A program made the translations under genes and the position numbers. From Candidatus Gottesmanbacteria bacterium GW2011_GWC1_43_10 (lineage in GTDB: Bacteria > Patescibacteriota > Microgenomatia > UBA10105): a stretch of DNA of 64,000 nt. Each line of letters starts with the position of its first letter. Positions within the stretch are counted from its first letter, which is position 1. Positions 2,015-62,680 of the stretch are shown here, one piece after another. Where the stretch lies: NCBI GenBank assembly GCA_000995415.1, contig LCEX01000001.1:60-64059 (forward strand). Direction: 5' to 3'. The notes beneath the pieces were generated by a model. That model did no database searches, was not told the origin of the DNA, and saw only the letters and a list, made by a program, of their open reading frames with translations.

Positions 2015-3061
2015 ATGAATGTTGGTATTTACGATCCATATCTACACATTTTGGGTGGAGCCGAGCGGTATATTTTGAACATTGCTTGTTGTTTAAGCCA
2101 GGATCACAAAATCATTCTGTTTTCGGACAACGCCAAATTATTGCTTGAGGCAGAAAAAAAATTCGGCTTGAAACTCGGACAGATTGAAGTCCGAACCTGG
2201 CCAAAAGATCGGAGTGCACGTCAACATGAGTTGAAAGAATTTGACCAGTTTTTTTATGTGACGGACGGTAGCCTATTTTTTTCACCGGCGAAGCAAAATT
2301 TACTGATTATCCAATCTCCTGATCACATTCCGGCAAACAATTTGACTAACAAAATCAAATTTTTGTCCTGGAGAAAAATCATTTGTTATTCAGAATTTAT
2401 GGCTGAAATTATTAAAAAACGCTTAGGTAAAACTGCGCATACGCTATTTGTACCGGTAGCGCAAACGCAAAATTTACACACTGCTAAGGAAAATTTGCTT
2501 ATTTCCGTGGGCCGATTTTTCCCCCACTTACATAATAAAAAGCAAAAGGAAATGGTGGGGATTTTGAGAGCTTTATTAAAGCAAGAGACAATCAAAGTGA
2601 AGCTTTGTTTAGTGGGGTCGGTCGACCCTGACGGAGATGCATATTTTAAACAAGTTACTGAAGAGACAGCAGGTTTACCGGTAGAGATTTTGATAAAAGC
2701 AAGCGCTCAAACGCTCAACGCGCTTTTAGATCGAGCCAAAATCTATTGGCATGCCACCGGATACGGCGAAGATTTGGTCAAACATCCGGAGCGGGCAGAG
2801 CATTTTGGCGTTTCGACAATTGAAGCTATGGCCCACGGCGCCGTCCCGATCGTTTTTCCCGCAGGGGGACAACTGGAGATAGTAAACAATGGTCAAAACG
2901 GTTTCTGGTGGCGTACTCCTCAAGAGTTAATTAAATACACCCTAGAACTTTTGCAAAATGATAAATTACGCGAAAAATTAGCTCAAGCTGCCCAAAAAAG
3001 CAGTGCTAACTACTCCGAAGATAAATTTTGTGAAAAGCTCCATGAAATTCTTAAAAGCTAA
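2015..3061 (+). CDS. GT4-family (GT-B fold) glycosyltransferase
   Basis: C-terminal FGVSTIEAMAHGAVPIVFPAGGQLEIVNNGQNGF is the canonical GT4 E-x7-E nucleotide-sugar binding motif. Confidence 0.85.
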   Translation: MNVGIYDPYLHILGGAERYILNIACCLSQDHKIILFSDNAKLLLEAEKKFGLKLGQIEVRTWPKDRSARQHELKEFDQFFYVTDGSLFFSPAKQNLLIIQSPDHIPANNLTNKIKFLSWRKIICYSEFMAEIIKKRLGKTAHTLFVPVAQTQNLHTAKENLLISVGRFFPHLHNKKQKEMVGILRALLKQETIKVKLCLVGSVDPDGDAYFKQVTEETAGLPVEILIKASAQTLNALLDRAKIYWHATGYGEDLVKHPERAEHFGVSTIEAMAHGAVPIVFPAGGQLEIVNNGQNGFWWRTPQELIKYTLELLQNDKLREKLAQAAQKSSANYSEDKFCEKLHEILKS

Positions 3062-5306
3062 CCTTCATTTATTTATATTTATTTTGTTAATTGGCGGGTT
3101 TAGCTATCCGTTTATTTTTAGTGGTAAATTACCTATCCCCAGTGATGCTCTAGTTGGTTTATATCATCCCTGGCGGGATAGTTTGCAGGGGTCTTTTCCC
3201 AATGGATATCCTTACAAAAACCCGCTGATTACGGATCCAGTGCGGCAGCAGTATCCATATAGGATTTTGGCGATAAATGACTTGAAACAAGGTCAATTGC
3301 CCAAATGGAATCCTTACAATTTTTCCGGTACGCCACTTATGGCCAATATCCAAACTGCTGCTTTTTATCCCTTGAATATTTTATTTTGGCTGCTGCCGGA
3401 TGCAAGCGCTTGGTCGATACTGGTTTTACTTCAACCCATATTAGCCGGAGTCTTCATGTATCTATACCTTAAGAATTTGCGCTTGGTGGAGAGTGCGGCA
3501 GTTTTGGGGGGAATCAGCTTTGCTTTTTCCGGATTTATGGTGGCTTGGTTGACTTGGAATACTATCGGGCATGTTGCTTTGTGGTTACCTTTGATCTTGT
3601 TGGCCAAAGATAAGTTACTTGAAAAATTCAGGTGGCGCTGGGGATTAGTTTTGGTTTTTGCCGAGTCCGCGATGCTGCTAGCCGGACATTTGCAAACTGC
3701 CTTCTACGTAGTCGTATTTTCGACAATTTACCTGATTTTAAGAGCATGGCGACTCTCGAATACCAATTTGCGCGAAACTTGGCGGAAGTTAACGCCGTTT
3801 ATTTTTACTGCGTTGGCAGTTATGCTCTTGGTGAGCGGACAGTTCATCCCGACAGTCAGATTTATTTTGGCTTCCGCGCGCAATTTTGATCTACCTGATT
3901 GGCAGCGGCCGGAATGGTTTTTGCCGGTTGGGCATTTAATCCAATTTATCGCTCCGGATTTCTTCGGAAATCCGGCTACCGGTAATTATTGGGGGTATTG
4001 GAATTACGGCGAGTTTGTAGGATATATCGGAATATTACCTTTAATGCTAGGGATATTTGCCGGTCTGTTTCGCCGCGACAAAAAAACTTTATTTTATAGT
4101 TCGTGTTTAGTCAGTGCCTTGATTTTGGCACTGCCGACACCGCTAGCCAAAATCCCGTATCAACTCAATTTGCCGCTAATAGCGACACTGCAACCATCAC
4201 GGATAATCTTTTTGGTTGATTTTTGCTTTGCGGTATTAGCGGCGCTGGGAATGGATCATTTGTTAAAACAAAACCAAGCAACAGCAAGAAATCTGCAGCG
4301 GATTATCGTAGATCTGGCGCTTGTTTTCGGTTTCTTATGGTTATTTGTGATATTTGCTAGAAATTTGGGGGTTTCACCTGAAAAAGCACTTAAGCTCGTG
4401 ACTTCGAAACGGAATTTAGTTTTGCCTTCGGTTGTCTTTATAGCCGTAAGTGGATGCTTGTGGTTGCTTCATAGTGTAAAAAACCACGCGCGCCAAATCA
4501 TGGTTTTACTGTTGGTTGGCATCACCGCCTGGGAATTGTGGCACTTTGCCAACAAATTCACGCCGTTTACAGATCAAAATTTATTATTTCCGCAAGCCCC
4601 GACGCTTAATTTTCTCAAGGCCAACCTGGGCAACTACAGATTATTGACAACTGACCGGCGCATTTTGCCTCCCAACGTAACAACTTATTACCGACTGGCA
4701 AGCGTTGATGGATACGATCCTTTGTATCTGGCAAATTATGGAGAACTCATGGCTGCCTGGACGCGAAACTCACCCGACATCACTCCCGGCGCATTTAATA
4801 GGATATTGACGCCGGAAGATCCAAACACATTTTTTGCAGATTTGCTGGGAGTAAAATATGTGATTTCCTTAAAAGAAGAGACCGATCCGAAATTGAAGTT
4901 GGTGTTTCAGGAAGGCGAAACCCGCGTATATGAAAATACCCAAGTTTTCCCTCGCGCATTTTTAGCGGAAAAAGTTTACCAGTGGCCGAATCGGGAGACT
5001 CTGATTAAAGACATGTTTTTTAACCAGTCTCAACTCAGGAATGTGGCATTTACTACTGCCGATATTGAACTTCCAGCCAATCCGCTTGTTTCAGATGAGA
5101 CAGCCGAAATCGTAAGTTATTCGGAAAATAATATCATTATCAAAACCAAAACTACCCATGAGCGGTTATTGGTTTTGACTGATATTTACTATCCCGAGTG
5201 GCAGGCATTTATCGATGGCCAAAAAACCCAAATTTATCCGGTAGATTTAAGTTTACGGGGAATAGTTGTGTCGCAAGGCGAACATTTGATAGAATTGCAG
5301 ATTTGA
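3003..5306 (+). CDS. polytopic membrane protein, YfhO-like / GT-C-like; true start probably ATG at 3042
   Basis: More than 12 predicted TM helices. C-terminal YYPEWQAFIDGQKTQIYPVD resembles the YfhO-family C-terminal Y-P-G-W-x-A-x-VDG motif. Confidence 0.6.
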   Translation: MLTTPKINFVKSSMKFLKANLHLFIFILLIGGFSYPFIFSGKLPIPSDALVGLYHPWRDSLQGSFPNGYPYKNPLITDPVRQQYPYRILAINDLKQGQLPKWNPYNFSGTPLMANIQTAAFYPLNILFWLLPDASAWSILVLLQPILAGVFMYLYLKNLRLVESAAVLGGISFAFSGFMVAWLTWNTIGHVALWLPLILLAKDKLLEKFRWRWGLVLVFAESAMLLAGHLQTAFYVVVFSTIYLILRAWRLSNTNLRETWRKLTPFIFTALAVMLLVSGQFIPTVRFILASARNFDLPDWQRPEWFLPVGHLIQFIAPDFFGNPATGNYWGYWNYGEFVGYIGILPLMLGIFAGLFRRDKKTLFYSSCLVSALILALPTPLAKIPYQLNLPLIATLQPSRIIFLVDFCFAVLAALGMDHLLKQNQATARNLQRIIVDLALVFGFLWLFVIFARNLGVSPEKALKLVTSKRNLVLPSVVFIAVSGCLWLLHSVKNHARQIMVLLLVGITAWELWHFANKFTPFTDQNLLFPQAPTLNFLKANLGNYRLLTTDRRILPPNVTTYYRLASVDGYDPLYLANYGELMAAWTRNSPDITPGAFNRILTPEDPNTFFADLLGVKYVISLKEETDPKLKLVFQEGETRVYENTQVFPRAFLAEKVYQWPNRETLIKDMFFNQSQLRNVAFTTADIELPANPLVSDETAEIVSYSENNIIIKTKTTHERLLVLTDIYYPEWQAFIDGQKTQIYPVDLSLRGIVVSQGEHLIELQI

Positions 5307-5315
5307 AAGGCATGT

Positions 5316-5645
5316 ATGTCAAAAAAGAGAAACCAAACGCAGACGGATTTGCAAACAAAACTAATTGAGGAAGTATTAAGAGAAATACATGAGCGATGGC
5401 CCAAATTAAAACCGCAAAACTATAGGGGTTTTGCTAAAGCACTGAAAGCACTGGATGATAAATACAGTGGTTTATCGATAAGTAATGAAGGTGATGACCC
5501 TTTAGTATTGCAGAAGTTAAACACAATTAGAACTCTTCAAAATAGAGTAGATGCTGGCATCATGGATTTAGGAATCATGGGTGAAAGCTTAACTGGCGAA
5601 TGGTCGCGTAAACAGCGGCTCGGACCCGAAAAAAATAGATTTTAA
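5316..5645 (+). CDS. hypothetical small protein (109 aa), charged and helical
   Basis: Intact ORF 7 nt upstream of the nuclease gene on the same strand. No recognisable motif. Confidence 0.45.
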   Translation: MSKKRNQTQTDLQTKLIEEVLREIHERWPKLKPQNYRGFAKALKALDDKYSGLSISNEGDDPLVLQKLNTIRTLQNRVDAGIMDLGIMGESLTGEWSRKQRLGPEKNRF

Positions 5646-5652
5646 ATAGTTT

Positions 5653-6480
5653 ATGAAAGATAAATACACTGCAGTTTGGTTGTCACATTCTTCGATCAAA
5701 GATTATTTGAAGTGCCCGCAGGCATATTATTTAAATAATATTTATAGGAAGCCTGAAACTGGACACAAGATCATGTTGATGCAGCCGCCGTTGGCTCTGG
5801 GACAAGTAGTGCACGAAGTGATTGAAGAAATGTCAAAGCTACCGGCTGCCGAGAGACTACGTGAATCCCCCTTAAAGATTTATGAACGGTTGTGGAAAAA
5901 AGTGTCTGGCAAAATGGGTGGATTTCGAAGTCTGGATGAGGAAACAAAATATCAAAAACGCGGCCAAGAGATGGTCCAGCGGTTGATAGATAACCCCGGG
6001 CCGCTACTTAAAAAAATCATCAAAATCAGAGAAGAATTGCCTTACTTTTGGCTATCTGAAGAAGAAAATTTGATTTTATGCGGCAAGATTGATTGGTTGG
6101 AATACTTGCCCCAAACAGATAGTGTGCGGATTTTGGATTTCAAAACCGGAAAATTTGACGAGGATCCTGACTCATTGCAATTGCCGATTTACAATCTGTT
6201 AGTGACCAATTGCCAAAAGCGGTCGGTGACAGGAGCCAGTTATTGGTATTTGGATCGGGATGACGAACCAAGGCTAGTAAAATTGCCGGATTTGGATAGT
6301 TCGTATAAGCGAGTCATGGAAATCGCCCAAAAGATCGCCCTGGCAAGAAAACTTGAGCATTTCAAGTGCCGCCAGAAAGACGGTTGTCGTGCTTGTTTGC
6401 CTCTGGAGCGGATCGTTGCGGGCCAAGCCGAATACGTAGCCGTAGGCGAATACAAAAAAGACATTTATATCCTCAACTAG
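5653..6480 (+). CDS. PD-(D/E)XK nuclease superfamily protein, Cas4/RecB-exonuclease-like, with Fe-S cysteine cluster
   Basis: N-terminal Cys in KCPQAYYL. Motifs IDWLE and ILDFKTGK give the D...D/ExK core. C-terminal C-x5-C-x2-C (CRQKDGCRAC). The arrangement of one N-terminal and three C-terminal Cys matches Cas4/AddB-type 4Fe-4S nucleases. Confidence 0.6.
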   Translation: MKDKYTAVWLSHSSIKDYLKCPQAYYLNNIYRKPETGHKIMLMQPPLALGQVVHEVIEEMSKLPAAERLRESPLKIYERLWKKVSGKMGGFRSLDEETKYQKRGQEMVQRLIDNPGPLLKKIIKIREELPYFWLSEEENLILCGKIDWLEYLPQTDSVRILDFKTGKFDEDPDSLQLPIYNLLVTNCQKRSVTGASYWYLDRDDEPRLVKLPDLDSSYKRVMEIAQKIALARKLEHFKCRQKDGCRACLPLERIVAGQAEYVAVGEYKKDIYILN

Positions 6481-6503
6481 CTACACTAATTTATCCTCAA
6501 GAT

Positions 6504-6532
6504 TTGCCGCTTTTGATTAATTGTCCTATAAT
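6504..6532 (+). promoter_or_regulatory. sigma70-like promoter (TTGCCG -17 nt- TATAAT) for a leaderless transcript of the 6541 ORF
   Basis: TTGCCG at 6504-6509 and TATAAT at 6527-6532 with 17-nt spacing. The ATG at 6541 is only 8 nt downstream. Confidence 0.35.
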
Positions 6533-6540
6533 ACGGTCTG

Positions 6541-7017
6541 ATGATTGAGATATTACACAATTTACCGGATGCAGCTATAGCAGCTGTGGGGGTGGCAGGA
6601 CTTTTACCAGCATTCCTAACTACGTTTTTAGCAATAGGCAAAAAATATCCGATTGAAGATTTTGAAGTCACATCATTTGGTGATATGAAAGAACCACCAA
6701 GTACCATTCTTATAGATGAGGTTCCCGATTCAAACGTAATCTATATCCAATCTGGAGCTACAGTTACTTGTAGAATTGGCGGTGAGCCATTTATAATCCG
6801 AGACTGGCGGCCACGACCGGATAAACCTGGACGTCAGGGAACAAATGGCAACTGTTCAATTAATTCAGACAACAGAAGACCACTCAATGCTACCGAATCC
6901 GAATCACCCAAGCCTTTTCATAGTTTTCCTGGAGCTCTTCTTAAGTACACGAGTATGCCAAGAAGATTGATTTTAGACATCGCTAGTTATTTACAACCGC
7001 AACAGTCCTTACAGTGA
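6541..7017 (+). CDS. hypothetical protein with N-terminal TM anchor (158 aa)
   Basis: ORF with its own promoter-like sequence. Hydrophobic AAIAAVGVAGLLPAFLTTFLAIG segment. No known motif. Confidence 0.4.
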   Translation: MIEILHNLPDAAIAAVGVAGLLPAFLTTFLAIGKKYPIEDFEVTSFGDMKEPPSTILIDEVPDSNVIYIQSGATVTCRIGGEPFIIRDWRPRPDKPGRQGTNGNCSINSDNRRPLNATESESPKPFHSFPGALLKYTSMPRRLILDIASYLQPQQSLQ

Positions 7018-7041
7018 TTTGACAGTTTTTCCATACATTTT

Positions 7042-8490
7042 TTAGCGGACTTTTATCAAAACGTACTCTTTGTGTTGAGCCAGCAATTCATATTTTTGCG
7101 TCGGTATTTTATCCAGATCCATTTTCCATTTTTCGGAAAGCAATAAAAACGGCTTCGGGCCGTTGTCGATGAAATCCACTAAAGAATAACCCTCGCCGGC
7201 TACCAACGTTACCTGTTTTTGGGAGTAAAAGGTAGCGGACGGAAGAAAATAATCAGCGTAGAGATAAAGTTTTTCCGACCGGTTGCGCGCGGCCTGGGCT
7301 GTATAGGCTAAACCACTTATGTCTTGATCAAATAGTCTGACTTCATTTTTAAACTTGTAAATTTGAAAAAAAGCAAAACCAGCCAAAAAAATTGCGGTCA
7401 AAAAAGTCGATATTTGTTTTCGTTGATAGTTCGAGGAGAAATTCAAGATGCGTAGACCAAAGTAAAACATTTGAAACACAAAAAATGAGGTGAGCAAAGC
7501 CAGAAAAGGATAAAGGGGAAATAAATGCCAAATTTCGGTCTTATTGTTGGAAAGGAAACCAAATAGGAGAAAAATGATCAGCCCGTACAGGGGAACCAGT
7601 CGTTTTTCTTTACGGATAAAAATCACGCATCCAAAAAGGGCTATCAGAAACGGGTAATACCATTTGCGGACACCGAAATGTAAATATTGGAATGTGAGCG
7701 ATGATCCGAGGTCAAACCAATTGGGAGTGATGCGACCAAATGGACGCAATCCGACATAAAAAATATGTTTGATAAAATTTAAATGATACAAATAAGTGTT
7801 GGCGATAATCCAAGGCAAAATAAGAAGGGTCACTAAAAATATGCCCAATAAAATCCGCTTAAAAGAAATAACTTGCTTTTCGATCAGCCACTCAATAGTG
7901 ATAGGGATGAGGATACTCAACCCAACGAGCATTTTAGTCAGCAAAACAGCTGCCAGCGAAAAAACTAAGGGAATGAGAAGCAGCGGGTGGTATTTGAGTT
8001 TGATTGCAATATAAAAAGTCAGCAGGTAAAACATCAGAAAAACCGCGTCCAGATTGCCCGAGCGGGCTCTAAGCACAAACCAAACTGTAGATGCTAGGAT
8101 GAGACTAGCTCCTAGACCGATAGCCCGGTTAAACAGTTCCTTGCCGATAAAATATAGTAGAAGCAGTGAGAAAAAAGCTGATAAAGCTTCAGGCAGGCGA
8201 GCCGCAAACTCGTTGACGCCAAACAAAACAAAAGAAATTGCCATGAGTATAAATCCCAAGGGTGGATGTTCGTTGAAGCTTAAGCCGTTGAAAGTGAGTA
8301 CCAGCGGATTACCACGTTTTAGGATATTGAGTGCTACTTCTGCAAACCAGGCTTCATCAAAATCAACCAAACTGTAACTACCCAAGTTGTATAAAAATAG
8401 CGGCAGAAAAAGTGATAAAAAACTCACCACCAAAAGATCAATTTTATGTTTAATCAGTAAACTTGTGATTGTCTGATTAAATCTTTTCAT
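7042..8490 (-). CDS. ArnT/PMT-like GT-C glycosyltransferase (COG1807-like, GT39/GT83 family)
   Basis: LVDFDEAWFAEVALNILKRGNP...HPPLGF...GVNEFAARLPEALSAFFSLLLLYFIG follows the DEA-x-YA / KPPL / RLPSAL pattern of ArnT-family undecaprenyl-phosphate-sugar-dependent transferases. About 12 TM helices. Confidence 0.75.
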   Translation of the reverse strand: MKRFNQTITSLLIKHKIDLLVVSFLSLFLPLFLYNLGSYSLVDFDEAWFAEVALNILKRGNPLVLTFNGLSFNEHPPLGFILMAISFVLFGVNEFAARLPEALSAFFSLLLLYFIGKELFNRAIGLGASLILASTVWFVLRARSGNLDAVFLMFYLLTFYIAIKLKYHPLLLIPLVFSLAAVLLTKMLVGLSILIPITIEWLIEKQVISFKRILLGIFLVTLLILPWIIANTYLYHLNFIKHIFYVGLRPFGRITPNWFDLGSSLTFQYLHFGVRKWYYPFLIALFGCVIFIRKEKRLVPLYGLIIFLLFGFLSNNKTEIWHLFPLYPFLALLTSFFVFQMFYFGLRILNFSSNYQRKQISTFLTAIFLAGFAFFQIYKFKNEVRLFDQDISGLAYTAQAARNRSEKLYLYADYFLPSATFYSQKQVTLVAGEGYSLVDFIDNGPKPFLLLSEKWKMDLDKIPTQKYELLAQHKEYVLIKVR

Positions 8491-21055: not shown

Positions 21056-23011
21056 GTGCATATGTGGGAATTTGTGTACTACAGCCTAATTTTCGGATTG
21101 TTTGTTTGTGGATTTTTTTTGCTTCCGGGTTTGACACTTTTAAATTGGGCGAATATAAAACAGATTGCAAACAGAACAAAAATCAGTTGCGGTTTGATCC
21201 TGGGTGTAATCGGGTTTTTGTGGCTGGTTTTAATACTAAGAAGTTTGGGTTTGTCATTTAGACTGATGTGGATTTATGCTGGCGTTGGCGTTTGGTTTAG
21301 CTGGAAGCGTTTGATTCAAAGAAAACTTCAATTGACACACTTCAAGTTAAATATTAAAAAATTTTTTTATTTGCTGGTTTTAACAACTTTAGTTTTGATC
21401 CTCTCCATTTTGCATTTGACCGGCGGAGTGGGATCAGACGGGATGCATCTGGCGGCAGCTCGGGACGGCCTTTGGCGGGTAGCTGTGGTGGGTGAATTAA
21501 TTCATCACTTTCCGCCACAAATTCCGGGTTTCCCTCCGCAACTACTCAAAAATTATCACTTCTTTTATGATTTGTTGGTGGCAAGCACACAATTTTTGAC
21601 TTCAATTCCTACTCTAACTTTATATTTTAAGCTCTTTACTGTATTCTCCGCCGCGCTGTTTGTGCTTTTGATTTATGAAATCCTAGCACTTTTCGTAAAC
21701 AAAAGCGGGTGGGTTTTATACGGTACAGTTCTGACAGTGCTTACCGGGAATTTATCTTACCTGTTACATTTTTTTTCTGCGCAATACAGCTTTCTTTATA
21801 AAGCCAATATCTTTATGTCAGATCAACCTTTTGACCAAGTACATAACCCGTTTAATCTGTTTGCTTACTCTTTGGTGTTACTTAGTATTTACTTACTTTT
21901 TGTCTGGGAAAGAAACTCTAGTCCCAAAACGTTTTTACTTCTGGCATTGGTTATTGGGTTACTTCCCGGGATCAAAATCTATGCTGGAGTATTGGTCTTG
22001 GGCGCATATATAGGTATGGTGGCTTATAAAATTTTTTGGCAAAAATACTTTCGTTTTTATTTACTACTACCCTTTATTTTTGTCTTACCAGTATTAAATA
22101 GCATTCGGGGCAGTGGGTTTTCGATTTTGGTATTTAACCCGGGTTGGTTACTAACTAAAATGATCGAAGATCGGGATCGAATTTATTGGCCCGAGATGGC
22201 ACTAAAATTGCAGTACTATACCCAAACTGGCAACATATTTCGTATATTACAGATCAGAATTACCCAATTATTAGTATATTTTTTAGGTAATTTAAACGTC
22301 CGAGTATTGGGATTGATAGTACTTTTTAGACGGGCTTGGTATAAAGACCAGACCGGAACGAAGGTATTTATTTTACTCATAGCTGTTTTTGCGTTTGGAT
22401 TGCCGCTGTTTTTTAGTCAAAATCGGGCTAGTTATGACAGTATTCAATTTACTCCATACGGTTTGCTGCTAATCAGTTTGTTGTTGGCTGTGGTTTTTAC
22501 AAGTTGGGTCTTGAGGTTAAAGCAAAATCTGCGAACTGCAGTTGGGTGGTTGGGAGGTGGGTTATTGCTAGCTTTAGCCATCCCGACAAATATTTTTGTT
22601 TTAAATCAAAATTTGTTGGCTACACATTACCAGGTAAATAAGGACGAAGTAGCTGCTTTAGCCTATCTATCAAAAAATATGCGTCCGGATGAAATAGTTT
22701 TAACAGACCTGGATCAGGATAAACAAATGTATATGTATGTCGCGGCCCTGCTTGAACGGCGGGTGTTTTTGGCCGGGATAGCATTAAACGAACAGTTGGG
22801 CATAAACTCTGACCCAAGACGCAAGGAAATAAACCAATTCTTTGCAAACCACGATGAAAACCTCGATCAGAAACGGAATTTTTTGCACAGTAATACCATT
22901 GCCTACATTTATATATCTGCCTCAGGGTTGACATATCGGGACTTACTAAATGATCTGGGGTTACAAACGGTTTACCAAAATCAGAAGGTCTATATCTATA
23001 AAGTTCCATGA
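21056..23011 (+). CDS. polytopic integral membrane protein of unknown family interrupting the paralog array
   Basis: More than 14 predicted TM segments and no DE/GYNAYS motif. Starts 2 nt after paralog 4 and overlaps paralog 5 by 4 nt, so it is co-transcribed. Confidence 0.6.
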   Translation: MHMWEFVYYSLIFGLFVCGFFLLPGLTLLNWANIKQIANRTKISCGLILGVIGFLWLVLILRSLGLSFRLMWIYAGVGVWFSWKRLIQRKLQLTHFKLNIKKFFYLLVLTTLVLILSILHLTGGVGSDGMHLAAARDGLWRVAVVGELIHHFPPQIPGFPPQLLKNYHFFYDLLVASTQFLTSIPTLTLYFKLFTVFSAALFVLLIYEILALFVNKSGWVLYGTVLTVLTGNLSYLLHFFSAQYSFLYKANIFMSDQPFDQVHNPFNLFAYSLVLLSIYLLFVWERNSSPKTFLLLALVIGLLPGIKIYAGVLVLGAYIGMVAYKIFWQKYFRFYLLLPFIFVLPVLNSIRGSGFSILVFNPGWLLTKMIEDRDRIYWPEMALKLQYYTQTGNIFRILQIRITQLLVYFLGNLNVRVLGLIVLFRRAWYKDQTGTKVFILLIAVFAFGLPLFFSQNRASYDSIQFTPYGLLLISLLLAVVFTSWVLRLKQNLRTAVGWLGGGLLLALAIPTNIFVLNQNLLATHYQVNKDEVAALAYLSKNMRPDEIVLTDLDQDKQMYMYVAALLERRVFLAGIALNEQLGINSDPRRKEINQFFANHDENLDQKRNFLHSNTIAYIYISASGLTYRDLLNDLGLQTVYQNQKVYIYKVP

Positions 23012-32902: not shown

Positions 32903-34630
32903 ATGGTTAATTCGATTGTTTATGTGAGTACATGGATTTGGCAAAGAAGATACTGGTTGGTTTATTGGGTTGTGGTATTCGGGATATATTGGGCAAACAC
33001 TTTCCATACAAACTTTTCAGACGAATTCGATAACATAGTGGGTGGCTGGTATATAAACCATGGTATCCTGCCCTACATCGGTTTTTTTACACATCACAAT
33101 CCAGGTGCCTACTTCTTATCGGCCCTAATTACTTTATTTACGAAGCAATCATTTGTAGTGTTTCGAATAGTGTGGGGTGGGATGCTGTTTTTGGCCGTAT
33201 GCAGTAGTTATTTTTTTTTGCGTAAGCATGTTGGTATAAAAGACACATGGTTTTTTTTAGGATACACTGTCCTTGTTGGTCTGTCCGCCACATATTATTG
33301 GGGACACATGATGTTATCGGAGACAATCGTTGGGTATCTGTTGATACCTGTTTACGGTCTGGTGTTTATTAAAGCTTTGCGCGGTCAAGTTTTTACTTAC
33401 CGAGACGTTTGGTTCGTATCTATTGGTACAGCTCTAGCTCTTTTTACCTCTTTTACATTCATTTTTTCTACAGCCATATTGGTAGGTTTTGTGGCGCTTC
33501 TTTATCTAAGGCAAATAAGACTCATACAAGATATAAAAAGATTTTGCATAAGTACAGGAAAAATAATGGGTATATTTATCTTGCCTTACGTAATATTTTT
33601 AGCGTATCTCATAGTTTCGGGTAGTTTACCCAAATTTTACTTCCAATCCATTACTTACAATCGGGATTATTACATATACAACTTTCCCAAGGTTTCTGGC
33701 CAGATTTCCAAAAATCCCGCTCGATACGCACTTTCAATTCTTTATGAAACGTCGAACCAATTTAACACTCTATCTTTTCAAGTTCGTGACTTTAATTTTG
33801 CTTATCCCATAAATATCACTCTTTTAGTGGCAAACGTAACTGTATTTATTTATCTCTTTCTGAGAAAGAAGAACTTTCAGGCGGTGGTTATCTATTTATT
33901 TATTGTGTACCTTAATGCCAGAGCAGAACCGTTAAATTCAGGCGAAACAGATTTTCACTCGACTGTCTACATCATGGTGAGTTTATTTAATCTGAGCTTC
34001 ATAGTTTGGGAAGTTTGGCATGCCCTAAACGCCAAGCTTAGCTCCGCAATACGGCTTATTAACAGCACTTTATTTTTGTTCGTAGGTGTATATGGGGTTT
34101 TTCTGACTGCGTTCTTTGCCAGGAATTTTGCGGACAAAACCTATGCCAAAATCATGGGTCAGGCGCCAATTATTTACGATGATCCTGTTGTGGCTCCAAT
34201 AATAAACAAAATTGTATCAAAAGATGAATATTTTTGGATCGGACCGTTTGAATTTCAAGAACTTTTATACATAAACGGACGGTTGCCTTCAAAATATCAC
34301 TGGTTTTTACCCGCCCATGAACGCTCAGAACAAATTCGTACCGAGTTCATATCAGACCTGACGCGGAACCGACCAAAAATAATCGTCTTTAAAGGAAATT
34401 TGGGTTATTTTGGGAAGTTACCTCAGGAATTTAATTATCCGATCGCAAATTTTCTGCGGGATTACTATTTTCGTTTAATAGATCTTGAGGCTGAAAATAA
34501 GAAATTTAAGCCAACACGGACGGATTTGCACAATTTTGATATTGCCGAAAACTTCTACTTCGATAAAAGTAAAAAAAATGAAATAGTAGAACAGCTTTTG
34601 CGCGAAAATATTATTAAACCAGCAGAATGA
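32903..34630 (+). CDS. polytopic integral membrane protein, unknown family (candidate GT-C or polymerase)
   Basis: About 12 predicted TM helices plus a soluble C-terminal tail. No known motif recognised. Confidence 0.55.
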   Translation: MVNSIVYVSTWIWQRRYWLVYWVVVFGIYWANTFHTNFSDEFDNIVGGWYINHGILPYIGFFTHHNPGAYFLSALITLFTKQSFVVFRIVWGGMLFLAVCSSYFFLRKHVGIKDTWFFLGYTVLVGLSATYYWGHMMLSETIVGYLLIPVYGLVFIKALRGQVFTYRDVWFVSIGTALALFTSFTFIFSTAILVGFVALLYLRQIRLIQDIKRFCISTGKIMGIFILPYVIFLAYLIVSGSLPKFYFQSITYNRDYYIYNFPKVSGQISKNPARYALSILYETSNQFNTLSFQVRDFNFAYPINITLLVANVTVFIYLFLRKKNFQAVVIYLFIVYLNARAEPLNSGETDFHSTVYIMVSLFNLSFIVWEVWHALNAKLSSAIRLINSTLFLFVGVYGVFLTAFFARNFADKTYAKIMGQAPIIYDDPVVAPIINKIVSKDEYFWIGPFEFQELLYINGRLPSKYHWFLPAHERSEQIRTEFISDLTRNRPKIIVFKGNLGYFGKLPQEFNYPIANFLRDYYFRLIDLEAENKKFKPTRTDLHNFDIAENFYFDKSKKNEIVEQLLRENIIKPAE

Positions 34631-60772: not shown

Positions 60773-62680
60773 ATGGGTAAGAAAAATCGTACAATAATCA
60801 TCTTCGCGTTTACGCAAAAACAGGCAGAATGGGGAGTTGATTACCGCCAAAAACATACTAGTGACCAAACTATCATTTTAGCTCCGACGATTGAGGCTAC
60901 TCTCACGCTCCAAAAATACCAGCAGCAGGCATTTGAGTATTTTAATTTATTGTCACAAAATAGTCCGTTACATTACCCGCAAGTTCTCTTGCCTTATTCC
61001 GAGAAAAGCCAGGAATTAGTGAAGTATTTTAACAAACACGTGGAACAGATCGAGGTGTGCGGTATCAATTTCATCGAGATTTTTGACTATTTACTCTGGG
61101 GAGAGTTTTTAGATGTTTTTTTGGCATATGCGCTCTTCAATGAAATTGAAAAGAAGTGGCACCCGGATGCATTTATCGGATTTAAAGACGCGGCTGATGT
61201 TTCGCTAGCCAGTTGGTCGCCTCGACAATTTTCTTACGCCGCTCTGATTTGTGCTTTTTTTGCCCCACCCGAAAAGGTAAAATGGCAGGAAATTTTAGAT
61301 CCCTCCCACCAATCGAGGATTTTTGATTACACGTTTTATCTACCAACGTTGTTTCGGACAGTTTTAGAAATGGGTGGCGGATGGATTCTAAAAAAATATT
61401 CAAATTTGAAAAATCGCTTATTCAAAATAAAACCACACGAAGTTGACTTTCTCTTGTTCTCCGGCGGATTTAACTTGTATTATAACAAGTCGTTGTTTGA
61501 GCACCTTTTATCAAACCGTAAGTATCTTGTAACTACCGGGGATCATCTTTTGGAACACGAATGGTTACTTAAAACTCAAAGTTTTCACTACACTCCACTA
61601 GCACATTTCTTGACAAGGCAATTATCTGACCAAGTCGATAAAACGCACCAGCAAATTTCCAAAAAAATCGATTCAATTCTCACCCAAACAGAAGTCACCC
61701 AATTACTTTTTCCCAGCTCGCTTCCCGAGGTCTGCAAGCAAGCGTGTTTGGCAAAGTTACGGTTGGTGTTTCGCCAATACACGCTAAAATTTGTCCGCCA
61801 AACTATATTAGCCCAAGAAGTCATCCGCAGCTCTCGACCCAAACTGGTAATTACCACACACGATCCAGGACCCTCTGCATTGCCGTTTGTGTTTTTGGCC
61901 AAGCGCAAACACATACCCACGTTAGTCTTATTACATGGATTTCACGACGTGCATTTTGGAGCCGATCACAAGAGTGACTACATGGCTTTGTGGGGGAAAT
62001 TAGTCCAAAATAGATTTGAAAAAATACTTCATAAACCCCGTAAGACTCTTTTTACTGTGGGTTTTCCCCATTTGGATGAGATTTTTCAAAAAAAGCAGGC
62101 TTTTTGGCAACGAAATCTTGGGCAATTTAAACCACGAAACCCAGTCAAAATAGGATTTCTGTGCACATTATATCCGCCCAATACTTTTATTCTGACAAAA
62201 TACTTTCATGAGGTGATGGAAAAGTTTAAGCAGTTACCATTTCCCATAGAAGTATGGATTCGAACTCATTCCGGGCAAATTGTGCATGAGCTTAGGAGTT
62301 TGGGAGATCATTACGGGGTGAAAACGATGATAAATCCAAAGACGACTTTAAACGAATTCTTGGAATCAACAGATGTGATTGTGTCTTGGGATACGACAGC
62401 CATTTTGTGGCCAATGCTATTTGGCAAACCTTTGTTTTACATGAGTCCTTGGTGGGCGGAAGCCAATATCCCAGCAAACAAATATCAGGCGGCATGGACA
62501 GTAAAAAACGCTGCAGAGTTGGTAAAAGGACTTGATTATTTGGTACATCATCCAGAAGCTGTAACCAAACTTCATCCAGGTCAACGCCAATTTTTAAACG
62601 ACGCATTGGGAGTGATTGATGGAACTTCTGGAGAAAAACTAGCAAATCTGATTGAGCATTTACTGACGAGTTCTGCTTGA
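60773..62680 (+). CDS. large soluble protein of unknown family; candidate GT-B-like nonulosonate transferase or PseG-type hydrolase fusion
   Basis: 635 aa, no TM helices. C-terminal VIVSWDTTAILWPMLFGKPLFYMSP resembles a GT-B C-terminal donor-binding segment. It sits between the CMP-sugar synthetase and PseB genes. Confidence 0.4.
   Translation: MGKKNRTIIIFAFTQKQAEWGVDYRQKHTSDQTIILAPTIEATLTLQKYQQQAFEYFNLLSQNSPLHYPQVLLPYSEKSQELVKYFNKHVEQIEVCGINFIEIFDYLLWGEFLDVFLAYALFNEIEKKWHPDAFIGFKDAADVSLASWSPRQFSYAALICAFFAPPEKVKWQEILDPSHQSRIFDYTFYLPTLFRTVLEMGGGWILKKYSNLKNRLFKIKPHEVDFLLFSGGFNLYYNKSLFEHLLSNRKYLVTTGDHLLEHEWLLKTQSFHYTPLAHFLTRQLSDQVDKTHQQISKKIDSILTQTEVTQLLFPSSLPEVCKQACLAKLRLVFRQYTLKFVRQTILAQEVIRSSRPKLVITTHDPGPSALPFVFLAKRKHIPTLVLLHGFHDVHFGADHKSDYMALWGKLVQNRFEKILHKPRKTLFTVGFPHLDEIFQKKQAFWQRNLGQFKPRNPVKIGFLCTLYPPNTFILTKYFHEVMEKFKQLPFPIEVWIRTHSGQIVHELRSLGDHYGVKTMINPKTTLNEFLESTDVIVSWDTTAILWPMLFGKPLFYMSPWWAEANIPANKYQAAWTVKNAAELVKGLDYLVHHPEAVTKLHPGQRQFLNDALGVIDGTSGEKLANLIEHLLTSSA

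Follow-up and report, generated by a model that had tools for sequence, protein, structure and literature searches.

A widespread standalone iron-staple nuclease gene and two species-restricted orphan reading frames between membrane glycosyltransferase genes of a Candidatus Gottesmanbacteria bacterium

Three consecutive reading frames of Candidatus Gottesmanbacteria bacterium GW2011_GWC1_43_10 are best explained as a single ordinary gene that is conserved, accompanied by two orphan ORFs specific to the lineage, rather than as a three-gene system. According to this explanation, to which we assign a probability of roughly 0.7 as a whole, the conserved gene encodes a housekeeping standalone AddB/AdnA/ACE1-like single-stranded DNA (ssDNA) nuclease that probably acts in DNA repair or recombination, and it is flanked by two species-specific orphans. 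An earlier note on the same DNA had suggested a defence or toxin-like three-gene module or the remnant of a mobile element. That idea found no support, since the flanking frames are unconserved, the nuclease is widely conserved with native composition, a relative shares the local gene order, and there is no defence or mobile context. As the region fails as a defence islet, there is no ground for pursuing it as a new system.

The window, that is, the whole stretch of DNA analysed (64 kb), contains the following features at this locus:

3003-5306, plus strand: YfhO-family membrane protein gene (PF09586, E = 3.9e-25), the upstream flank
5316-5645, plus strand: ORF1, 109 aa, charged, occupying the spacer between the YfhO and nuclease genes
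5653-6480, plus strand: nuclease gene, 275 aa, standalone iron-staple PD-(D/E)XK type (RecB/AddB/AdnA/ACE1-like)
6504-6532, plus strand: sigma-70-like promoter match, TTGCCG (6504-6509), 17 nt, TATAAT (6527-6532)
6541-7017, plus strand: ORF3, 158 aa, with a hydrophobic helix near the N-terminus and a C-terminal half rich in proline
7042-8490, minus strand: PMT_2-family membrane glycosyltransferase gene (PF13231, E = 3.6e-16), convergent with ORF3

Thus, the three ORFs of 109, 275 and 158 aa lie between the YfhO and PMT_2 genes with the spacings that the earlier note had given. Both flanking genes belong to membrane glycosyltransferase families, and the window holds seven PMT_2 paralogues, including the gene at 7042-8490; the nuclease is, as had been remarked, functionally unrelated to these adjoining glycan-biosynthesis genes. 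The ATG of ORF1 lies 9 nt beyond the YfhO stop (5306), and the ORF1 stop lies 7 nt before the nuclease ATG, a gap close enough for co-transcription in the strain studied here, in keeping with the operon that had been proposed. ORF1 is probably co-transcribed with the YfhO and nuclease genes, and would be reached by read-through from the YfhO operon. GC content across the three-gene region (0.37-0.44) resembles that of the flanks.

The 275-aa protein is a member of PF12705 (PDDEXK_1) and belongs to the RecB/AddB/AdnA/Cas4-like iron-staple branch of PD-(D/E)XK nucleases. It matched the profile at E = 1.3e-22 with 81.4 bits (cut-off, 22) over positions 2-240 of 247, and its homologues bear precomputed PF12705 annotation. 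Four cysteines (C21 and C239-x5-C245-x2-C248), the catalytic residues D147 and D162-F-K164, and the RecB-type QxxxY motif (Q176-x3-Y180, here Q176-L-P-I-Y180) were each invariant in 20 of 20 family members. The profile search and these residues bear out the Cas4/AddB-type Fe-S nuclease that had been read from the sequence. At the sequence level, the protein has the one N-terminal and three C-terminal cysteines that characterise iron-staple nucleases, and by analogy with them C21, C239, C245 and C248 should bind a 4Fe-4S cluster. The protein consists of the nuclease domain alone, with no helicase domain.

An AlphaFold2 (AF2) model of the nuclease reached a pLDDT of 89. Its best fold matches in the PDB were to ACE1 (9iab/9iac; E = 2e-8, TM 0.61), followed by AdnA (E = 1e-6, TM 0.58-0.62), Dna2 (E = 1e-4) and AddB (E = 2e-4), while the canonical Cas4 SSO0001 gave a weak match (TM 0.29); sequence identity to solved structures was 15-19%. 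ACE1 was also the sole sequence-profile match in the PDB, and the DFKTGK and Q-x3-YLL motifs of the nuclease align to it. ACE1 cuts ssDNA as an endonuclease, contains an Fe4S4 cluster and has its D-DxK site buried (PMC12094033). Like the present protein, it is a standalone nuclease of about 270 aa with one N-terminal and three C-terminal cysteines, and its D...DxK residues occupy nearly the same positions (D147/D162/K164 here, compared with D148/D162, the residues mutated in CtACE1). However, the two share only 15-17% identity. ACE1 comes from cyanobacteria, where a long-A pAgo is typically encoded alongside it, whereas the nuclease described here has no recurrent adjoining partner. No long-A Argonaute, as would mark the pAgo-ACE1 pair APACE1, occurs among the recurrent neighbour families or in the window listings, and Argonautes of any kind are absent from these neighbour families, from the PADLOC matches of the window and from its 25 most frequent Pfam families. 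With AdnA/AdnB, AddB and Dna2, the nuclease shares the iron-staple PD-(D/E)XK fold, the Fe-S cysteines, the QxxxY motif and, likely, a repair role on ssDNA tails. Those enzymes, in contrast, are domains of helicase-nucleases of 800-1200 aa, and neither the fusion to an SF1 helicase nor the operon with one that defines AddAB, AdnAB and RecBCD was found for the 275-aa protein among the listed neighbour families.

A CRISPR-associated Cas4 is not indicated. The nuclease scored 32.5 bits against TIGR00372 (Cas4), below the cut-off of 65, no PF01930 match was reported at E up to 1, and neither an array nor cas genes lie nearby. There is no CRISPR-like array in the 64-kb window. Its 50 large ORFs match 54 Pfam families, of which the 25 most frequent include no Cas family; PADLOC returned three matches in the window, none of them Cas and together no coherent system. 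These results agree with the earlier remark that CRISPR-cas is missing from the vicinity. CPR genomes are enriched in solo Cas4-family genes, which lie outside CRISPR-cas loci and have evolved chiefly vertically; the pfam12705 branch has no CRISPR association (Hudaiberdiev et al. 2017, PMC5704561). The nuclease resembles these solo genes in being encoded away from CRISPR-cas loci, and differs from them in fitting PF12705 best, not PF01930/COG1468. It also belongs to the same superfamily as the phage RecB-like/Cas4-like exonucleases of PHROG 69, and the phrog_69 'exonuclease' profile matched residues 10-248 (E = 2.7e-14); unlike those, it lies in a window of native composition without phage context, and its divergence tracks that of RpoB.

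Nor does the region look like a mobile element or a genomic island. The 25 Pfam families that the window's large ORFs match most often include no integrase or phage family, the window contains no tRNA gene, and its flanking repeats are short and compatible with chance. The comparison of composition that had been called for showed the nuclease gene to be native rather than foreign, with the GC content given above and a coding score of 0.112 bits/codon, typical of a host gene. Moreover, the YfhO-nuclease order is common to the relative L033, whose nuclease is 59% identical and whose locus reads glycosyltransferase (348 aa)-YfhO (780 aa)-nuclease, without ORF1 or ORF3. The proposed mobile-element remnant is thus not borne out.

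Microgenomates-type Patescibacteria carry the nuclease family in at least 546 species-representative genomes, with identities of 56-70%. Among 6035 homologues, the best 120 (leaving aside the 100% self-match) were 61-73% identical and about 275 aa long. The gene is vertically inherited: its composition is native, and its divergence tracks that of RpoB where this was tested. Pairwise identities of the two proteins gave a Mantel r of 0.92, which none of 5000 permutations reached; only loci with rpoB adjacent to the nuclease gene entered the comparison, and the correlation is inflated by linkage because the two genes adjoin in them. Within the species, the nuclease carried no substitution in L004 and none in L091. 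As to gene position, the earlier note had considered that a housekeeping RecB/AddB-family repair enzyme might be conserved at this site. The nuclease is indeed of that type and widespread, but its position varies across the family and is kept only within sub-lineages. One genome (P0002/L086) had appeared to be the closest relative, with 73% identity and an ORF3. Its nuclease gene is a mosaic, in which nt 1-581 show about 64% identity, whereas the remainder equals the window save for one mismatch; its coverage is 1.07x, and since it is either a chimeric assembly or a recombinant, it is not independent evidence. Two apparent pseudogenes in L090 were likewise set aside as assembly artefacts, namely a 'split' nuclease, which breaks at an alignment discontinuity of an N-containing scaffold with about 100 extra nt, and a 'split' beta-propeller gene with a 1-nt deletion.

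In other genomes, the nuclease is neighboured by variable housekeeping genes. Among 148 immediate neighbours, the recurrent families were Acetyltransf_6 (12), EamA (7), DUF2130 (6), HhH-GPD (6) and YceG (4); of 80 loci, about 15 had rpoB/rpoC near the nuclease. A helicase family is missing from the 25 Pfam families most often seen in the immediate neighbours. A cellular role in repair, recombination or replication, not mobile defence, is suggested by the wide distribution in Microgenomates, by the RpoB tracking and by neighbours that are housekeeping genes with a DNA-repair flavour.

Against this stands a defence reading. Here the nuclease would be a standalone enzyme of solo-Cas4/ACE1 type that serves defence or counters mobile elements by degrading the invading DNA of phages or plasmids, and ORF1, ORF3 or both would supply strain-specific accessory or specificity functions. 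Because ACE1, the nearest solved structure, is a pAgo accessory nuclease, and because the nuclease has weak PADLOC matches (Cas4, 1.9e-8; Aga_Cas4-like, 5.4e-6; DruK, 4.4e-4), a defence-type role keeps a small probability. The phrog_69 match also points that way, the function of solo Cas4 in small genomes has been left as 'defense or repair' (Hudaiberdiev et al. 2017, PMC5704561), and the fast evolution of ORF1 and ORF3 would fit an arms race. Nonetheless, we consider such a role unlikely. The search for a defence neighbourhood that the earlier note had recommended yielded no PADLOC family in more than three of the 148 neighbours. Neither cas, pAgo nor Druantia is among the most recurrent families of these neighbours, and no such partner, or any other, recurs there or occurs in the window. 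In addition, ORF1 and ORF3 never accompany the nuclease at the 80 other loci, the neighbours are housekeeping genes (rpoBC, YceG, EamA), and a gene so widespread, so closely tracking RpoB and invariant within the species is unlike typical defence genes.

De novo nucleotide synthesis is lacking in CPR bacteria, and the nuclease might serve nucleotide salvage by degrading imported or damaged ssDNA, instead of recombinational repair. A deoxynucleoside kinase (cluster 11, at position -3 of the nuclease in five loci), MazG pyrophosphohydrolase (three immediate neighbours) and HhH-GPD glycosylases occur near the gene in one sub-lineage, a helicase is neither fused nor adjacent, and a preference for ssDNA is expected from the analogy with ACE1. 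Yet no more than about 10% of loci have such neighbours, which frequently lie on the other strand, and the glycosylases together with GIY-YIG indicate repair at least equally. No competence genes were found among the recurrent neighbours. To our knowledge, the iron-staple nucleases characterised to date have functions in repair, in CRISPR adaptation or in the processing of guides, and none is used for bulk catabolism. Salvage therefore appears highly improbable to us.

If the nuclease is a housekeeping repair enzyme, as we prefer, its action can be pictured by analogy. A 4Fe-4S cluster held by the one N-terminal and three C-terminal cysteines would clamp the nuclease fold, and Mg2+ would be bound and DNA cut via D147, D162 and K164. 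[quoted passage not shown] Lacking a helicase, the enzyme would need one that is separately encoded, or pre-existing ssDNA. Both the Fe-S binding and the ssDNA specificity are thus predicted from analogy, and the repair role is deduced from the distribution and neighbours of the gene. A bolder proposal is that the nuclease is a core Microgenomates enzyme and the chief DNA-end and flap nuclease (a 'mini-Dna2') where AddAB, RecBCD and AdnAB were lost, partnered in some lineages by DUF2130, a translationally coupled PD-(D/E)XK protein, and that ORF1 and ORF3 are de novo-born genes caught early; we offer it tentatively, at odds of about one in four. In any event, the family is a very widespread and experimentally uncharacterised standalone AddB/ACE1-like type in Microgenomates-type Patescibacteria, and it could explain how DNA ends are processed in reduced genomes that have no fused helicase-nuclease machine.

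The two small ORFs have a quite different distribution. Among 5.8 billion proteins, no homologue of either was found outside Ca. Gottesmanbacteria GW2011_GWB1_43_11, and all matches to ORF1 and to ORF3 were at least 98% identical and from this same species. Both ORFs were absent at the 80 related nuclease loci, and the co-occurrence of the three genes that the module idea had led one to expect is confined to near-identical strains of one species. Searched by tblastn, 50,697 phage records gave no match to either ORF at E up to 1, and a phage origin is thus not indicated. We therefore weighed whether ORF1 and/or ORF3 are no genes at all, leaving open non-coding spacers or decayed remnants in an arrangement YfhO-spacer-nuclease-spacer-PMT_2. 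The missing homologues speak for this, as do a substitution density in both ORFs about 9-fold that of the flanking DNA and the spacer of only about 90 nt that L033 has in place of ORF1. On the other hand, the reading frames are intact on 30 (ORF1) and 32 (ORF3) contigs, and ORFs of these lengths arose in only 4 of 3000 dinucleotide shuffles of the YfhO-nuclease spacer and 1 of 3000 of the ORF3 spacer. The annotated frame had the best coding score of the six, by a clear margin, in both cases. A blastx search against about 1000 neighbour proteins, meant to reveal leftovers of genes found beside the nuclease in relatives (e.g., the Acetyltransf_6 gene downstream in L033), gave no match better than E = 0.9, and an Rfam search of the spacers returned nothing at E up to 1. 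Hence, the suspicion that the flanking ORFs might be spurious holds as far as their lack of conservation outside the species goes, but their lengths exceed chance. We regard their being no genes as rather doubtful; most likely, ORF1 and ORF3 are real, young, fast-evolving, species-restricted genes, and they are presumably expressed.

The coding score of ORF1 (0.085 bits/codon) lies inside the range of real genes, the other five frames score negative, and an AAAGG Shine-Dalgarno-like motif precedes it. Variation consists of three synonymous and two non-synonymous substitutions in L091 and one in-frame 15-nt deletion, the only indel. The five substitutions are confined to 110 nt and may represent a single recombination tract. 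A direct repeat (D4, 5452-5469 versus 5654-5671, LDDKYSG versus MKDKYTA) had raised the idea that ORF1 is a partial duplicate of the nuclease 5' end. Searches of six-frame translations with the nuclease family HMM and by blastn-short gave no support for a duplication, and the repeat was judged a chance match.

In ORF3, the N-terminal membrane-anchor-like stretch that had been noted is present (residues 12-30, mean Kyte-Doolittle 2.05), and the C-terminal half is proline-rich and disordered-looking; a single-sequence AF2 model reached a pLDDT of only 41 and was set aside as uninformative. The coding score of 0.005 bits/codon is lower than that of all 100 real-gene chunks and higher than that of all shadow ORFs, and all five within-species substitutions are non-synonymous (0 synonymous). 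The score, the variants and the low confidence of the model with its disordered C-terminal half favour the no-gene view for this ORF in particular, and ORF3 could be non-functional or decaying. An exhaustive phmmer search of 1.84 billion representatives gave three 'significant' matches (E = 6.5e-10 to 4.5e-4), which we rejected as repeat artefacts. The three proteins are mutually unrelated, each is built of almost perfect tandem repeats, and each score arises by counting a match of about 30 bits to one unit 5-7 times over. Upstream, 8 nt separate the TTGCCG-17-TATAAT site from the ATG of ORF3 (6541); the site matches the consensus at 10 of 12 positions and is the best one within 5000-7400. Thus, the promoter sequence and spacing described earlier are present, but matches of this quality are not enriched window-wide (18 observed versus 34 +/- 6 in shuffles). 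The chance of one in the 60-nt nuclease-ORF3 spacer is about 2% by our estimate, and the predicted promoter is plausible. ORF3 would then probably be transcribed from its own promoter, with a leader that is very short or absent. A leaderless habit was also sought genome-wide and gave no signal (a TAnnnT hexamer 4-12 nt before the start at 7 of 21 genes versus 0.28 expected).

The interest of ORF1 and ORF3, as fast-evolving, species-restricted small genes beside a strongly conserved one, is limited to research on how genes are born in CPR bacteria. Together they fill the variable spacers that flank the nuclease gene.

The locus is a standalone iron-staple PD-(D/E)XK nuclease of a known kind, lying between two species-specific orphan ORFs. 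ORF calling placed all three ORFs on the plus strand at exactly the coordinates proposed in the earlier note, and their proteins are 100% identical to GenBank UV61_C0002G0135-0137 (Candidatus Gottesmanbacteria bacterium GW2011_GWB1_43_11, contig UV61_C0002). The features are as follows.

3003-5306, + strand, YfhO-family membrane protein upstream of ORF1 (PF09586, E 3.9e-25)
5316-5645, + strand, ORF1, 109 aa
5653-6480, + strand, nuclease, 275 aa, PF12705 (PDDEXK_1)
6541-7017, + strand, ORF3, 158 aa
7042-8490, - strand, PMT_2 glycosyltransferase, downstream and convergent (PF13231, E 3.6e-16)

Glycan biosynthesis fills the entire 64-kb window, with 7 PMT_2, 2 YfhO, 1 PTPS_related, 7 GT1, and 7 GT2 genes, in addition to sugar epimerases/dehydratases, NeuB, and DegT. 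Within the window we found no CRISPR-like array, in agreement with the earlier note, and likewise no tRNA gene and no coherent PADLOC system.

The nuclease had been correctly identified from the sequence: it matched PF12705 end to end at 81.4 bits (cut-off 22). The iron-staple RecB/AddB/Cas4 signature ascribed to it is present, and in a 20-member family alignment the cysteines C21, C239, C245, and C248 (C-x5-C-x2-C) are invariant, as are H54, D147, and the catalytic motifs D162-F-K164 and Q176-x3-Y180. Assignment as a canonical Cas4 was rejected, as TIGR00372, at 32.5 bits, fell short of its cut-off of 65 and PF01930 was not reported. The top PDB match of an alignment-based AlphaFold2 model (pLDDT 89, pTM 0.84) was ACE1 (9iab/9iac; E 2e-8, TM 0.61), a standalone, Argonaute-associated, Cas4-family enzyme; the nuclease domains of AdnA (TM about 0.6), Dna2, and AddB were further top matches, whereas canonical Cas4 SSO0001 matched weakly (TM 0.29). 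ACE1 was also the sole, marginal match of the family profile to PDB sequences (E 0.012), in an alignment that pairs the DxK and QxxxY motifs. In ACE1, an Fe4S4 ssDNA endonuclease, the D-DxK site lies in a channel so narrow that it excludes duplex DNA; AdnA and AddB cleave the 5' strand once it is unwound (PMC12094033). By analogy with these closest characterised relatives, the nuclease would be 4Fe-4S stabilised and Mg2+ dependent, would cut ssDNA (5' tails, flaps, or unwound ends) supplied by a separately encoded helicase or already present, and would act in DNA repair, recombination, or replication. This picture agrees with a survey of solo Cas4-family genes, which are over-represented in CPR and DPANN genomes and mainly vertically inherited under ordinary purifying selection, with an unknown "defense or repair" function, and whose pfam12705 branch is not CRISPR associated (Hudaiberdiev et al. 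2017, PMC5704561).

The three ORFs had been read as an islet, possibly a small defence or toxin-like module or a mobile-element remnant; this reading is not supported, with distribution, inheritance, composition, synteny, and neighbourhood each speaking against it. A protein database search returned 6035 nuclease homologues, the best 120 of which, the self-match at 100% aside, were all ~275 aa long and 61-73% identical. With each species represented by a single genome, relatives were found in at least 546 genomes at 56-70% identity. Titles among the matches listed name Gottesman-, Woese-, Ames-, Shapiro-, Pace-, and Magasanikbacteria, and relatives already bear the GenBank annotation "PD-(D/E)XK nuclease family protein." In 13 loci that also carry rpoB, nuclease and RpoB identities correlate pair by pair (Mantel r 0.92, reached by 0/5000 permutations), with the caveat that the two genes are linked there. 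Neither GC nor codon-type comparison gave a foreign signal: regional GC (0.37-0.44) is like that of the flanks, and the frame-specific coding score of the nuclease, 0.112 bits/codon, is typical of window genes (mean 0.133, sd 0.05). Moreover, ORF1 and ORF3 accompany the nuclease only in near-identical strains of one species. The residual value of the locus lies in this nuclease family, very widespread in CPR and, to our knowledge, never studied by experiment.

The apparent closest homologue (P0002, 73%), on a contig with 1.07x coverage (L086 1-1732, ENA ERZ5996431 NODE_85045, corresponding to window 5646-6737), is a mosaic. Over nt 1-581, its nuclease shares ~64% identity with the window; nt 582-828 and 257 nt downstream (spacer, promoter, and first 65 ORF3 codons) are identical save 6534 C>T. 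Most probably, assembly fused two sequences at the conserved stretch coding for SYWYLDRDDEP, giving a chimera, or else the contig is possibly a genuine recombinant.

In a relative from Patescibacteria UBA10118 (locus L033), whose nuclease shares 59% identity, a GT (348 aa), YfhO (780 aa), and the nuclease follow one another in the order seen here; thus, the YfhO-nuclease adjacency is an inherited arrangement, not an insertion. The YfhO-nuclease gap there is only about 90 nt, and the downstream gene differs (Acetyltransf_6). At 3620-3712, immediately 3' of YfhO and ahead of the nuclease, L033 has a perfect GC-rich hairpin, GCTTAGCTTTCC-CGG-GGAAAGCTAAGC, which suggests that this nuclease is transcribed separately; the corresponding spacer of the window has no hairpin and is occupied by ORF1.

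Across 80 loci, the nuclease flanks are variable. One sub-lineage has the order YceG / Acetyltransf_6 / nuclease / DUF2130 / rpoB-rpoC. A second (L022, L027, L029, L030, L032, L044, and L058) has EamA upstream, with MazG (a 109-aa pyrophosphohydrolase), a MutY/Nth-like HhH-GPD glycosylase, and a deoxynucleoside kinase nearby, which is a DNA-repair and nucleotide-metabolism neighbourhood. The kinase and MazG would also suit a nuclease serving nucleotide salvage, a reading given lower confidence than the repair-type role. The Pfam families seen most often in the 148 immediate neighbours were Acetyltransf_6 (12), EamA (7), DUF2130 and HhH-GPD (6 each), YceG and CAP (4 each), and DUF378, GIY-YIG, and MazG (3 each). 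No PADLOC family recurred more than three times among them, and the recurrent neighbours included no cas, pAgo, or helicase family. A standalone defence enzyme, as the likeness to Argonaute-associated ACE1 might suggest, is likewise given lower confidence beside these counts.

The most frequent neighbour, the Acetyltransf_6/FemAB-like gene, is mostly divergent upstream and sometimes convergent downstream (L001 5020-5943, L006-L009, L013, L033 4810-5736, L087, L088, and others). In some lineages, DUF2130, with an N-terminal coiled coil, lies 3' of the nuclease with a 4-nt overlap, or nearby (L001 6825-7940, L010, L015, L020, L087 179-1243, and L089 4414-5472). DUF2130 (PF09903) was reportedly assigned to the PD-(D/E)XK superfamily by Steczkiewicz et al. 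in 2012, and the pair may form a two-nuclease operon. Neither gene occurs within the window.

ORF1 and ORF3 had no relatives outside the species: a search of 5.8 billion proteins returned only sequences of ≥98% identity, tblastn against all fetched loci only near-identical strains (L004 and L005), and phage records nothing. No Rfam family matched the ORF1-ORF3 region. An exhaustive phmmer search with ORF3 against 1.84 billion representatives found only ORF3 itself and three tandem-repeat proteins, which were dismissed as a chance ~30-bit match summed over 5-7 identical repeats. The two ORFs are not remnants of the relatives' neighbour genes, and ORF1 is not a duplicated nuclease fragment.

Nonetheless, neither is a chance ORF. 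When the two spacers were dinucleotide-shuffled, the observed length was reached in 4/3000 (ORF1) and 1/3000 (ORF3) cases. The annotated frame scored best of six for each, and the frames are intact on 30 and 32 contigs, respectively. The coding score of ORF1 (0.085 bits/codon) is inside the real-gene range; that of ORF3 (0.005) falls under all real-gene chunks (minimum 0.007) and over all shadow ORFs (maximum -0.027). ORF3 residues 12-30 are strongly hydrophobic. That the small ORFs are non-coding, as the ORF3 score might hint, is rated less likely in view of the lengths and intact frames.

We compared the window with the same-species loci L004, L090, and L091 and cluster members P0121-P0133. 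Variation within the species is concentrated in ORF1/ORF3, which carried 10 substitutions in about 2.4 kb of sites; the rest, roughly 19 kb, had about 9. These counts are small, and some clustered changes may be single events. In L091, ORF1 differs by 3 synonymous and 2 non-synonymous substitutions, and other members add two amino-acid variants and one in-frame 5-aa deletion; ORF3 has 5 non-synonymous and 0 synonymous changes, and the nuclease has none in L004 or L091. The variants are K15E, K32R, A42G, D60G, and loss of GIMDL between two GIM repeats in ORF1, and V75A, P83S, and PLN114-116TIK in ORF3. We read ORF1 as probably a genuine gene of recent origin, and ORF3 as either a genuine gene, atypical or under weak constraint, or a decaying one.

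ORF1 starts 9 nt past the YfhO stop and ends 7 nt ahead of the nuclease ATG, and no terminator-like structure was found on the plus strand of this stretch; YfhO, ORF1, and the nuclease are likely cotranscribed in this strain. An AAAGG motif precedes ORF1. A Shine-Dalgarno-like motif lies in the 20 nt before the start in only 6/50 window ORFs; this genome thus seems to use it rarely. -10-like hexamers just upstream of starts, as leaderless mRNAs would have, were not enriched (7/21 versus 0.28 expected). ORF3 had been credited with its own promoter and a leaderless mRNA. The site, TTGCCG-17-TATAAT (6504-6532), is the best promoter-like match of the region (10/12) and ends 8 nt ahead of the ATG as described, a position that would suit an mRNA with little or no leader. 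Equally good sites show no enrichment across the window (18 versus 34 ± 6 in shuffles), and the promoter is therefore plausible but unproven.

Elsewhere in the window, the GT-C-type paralogues (PMT_2, YfhO, and PTPS_related) are many and tandem, and several ORFs of 500-650 aa (21056-23011, 32903-34630, and 60773-62680) have no Pfam match. The longest-ORF start of YfhO (GTG, 3003) overlaps the preceding GT1 gene (2015-3061) by 59 nt, which makes a true start downstream of it probable; YfhO of L033 overlaps its preceding gene in the same pattern (1277 versus 1335).
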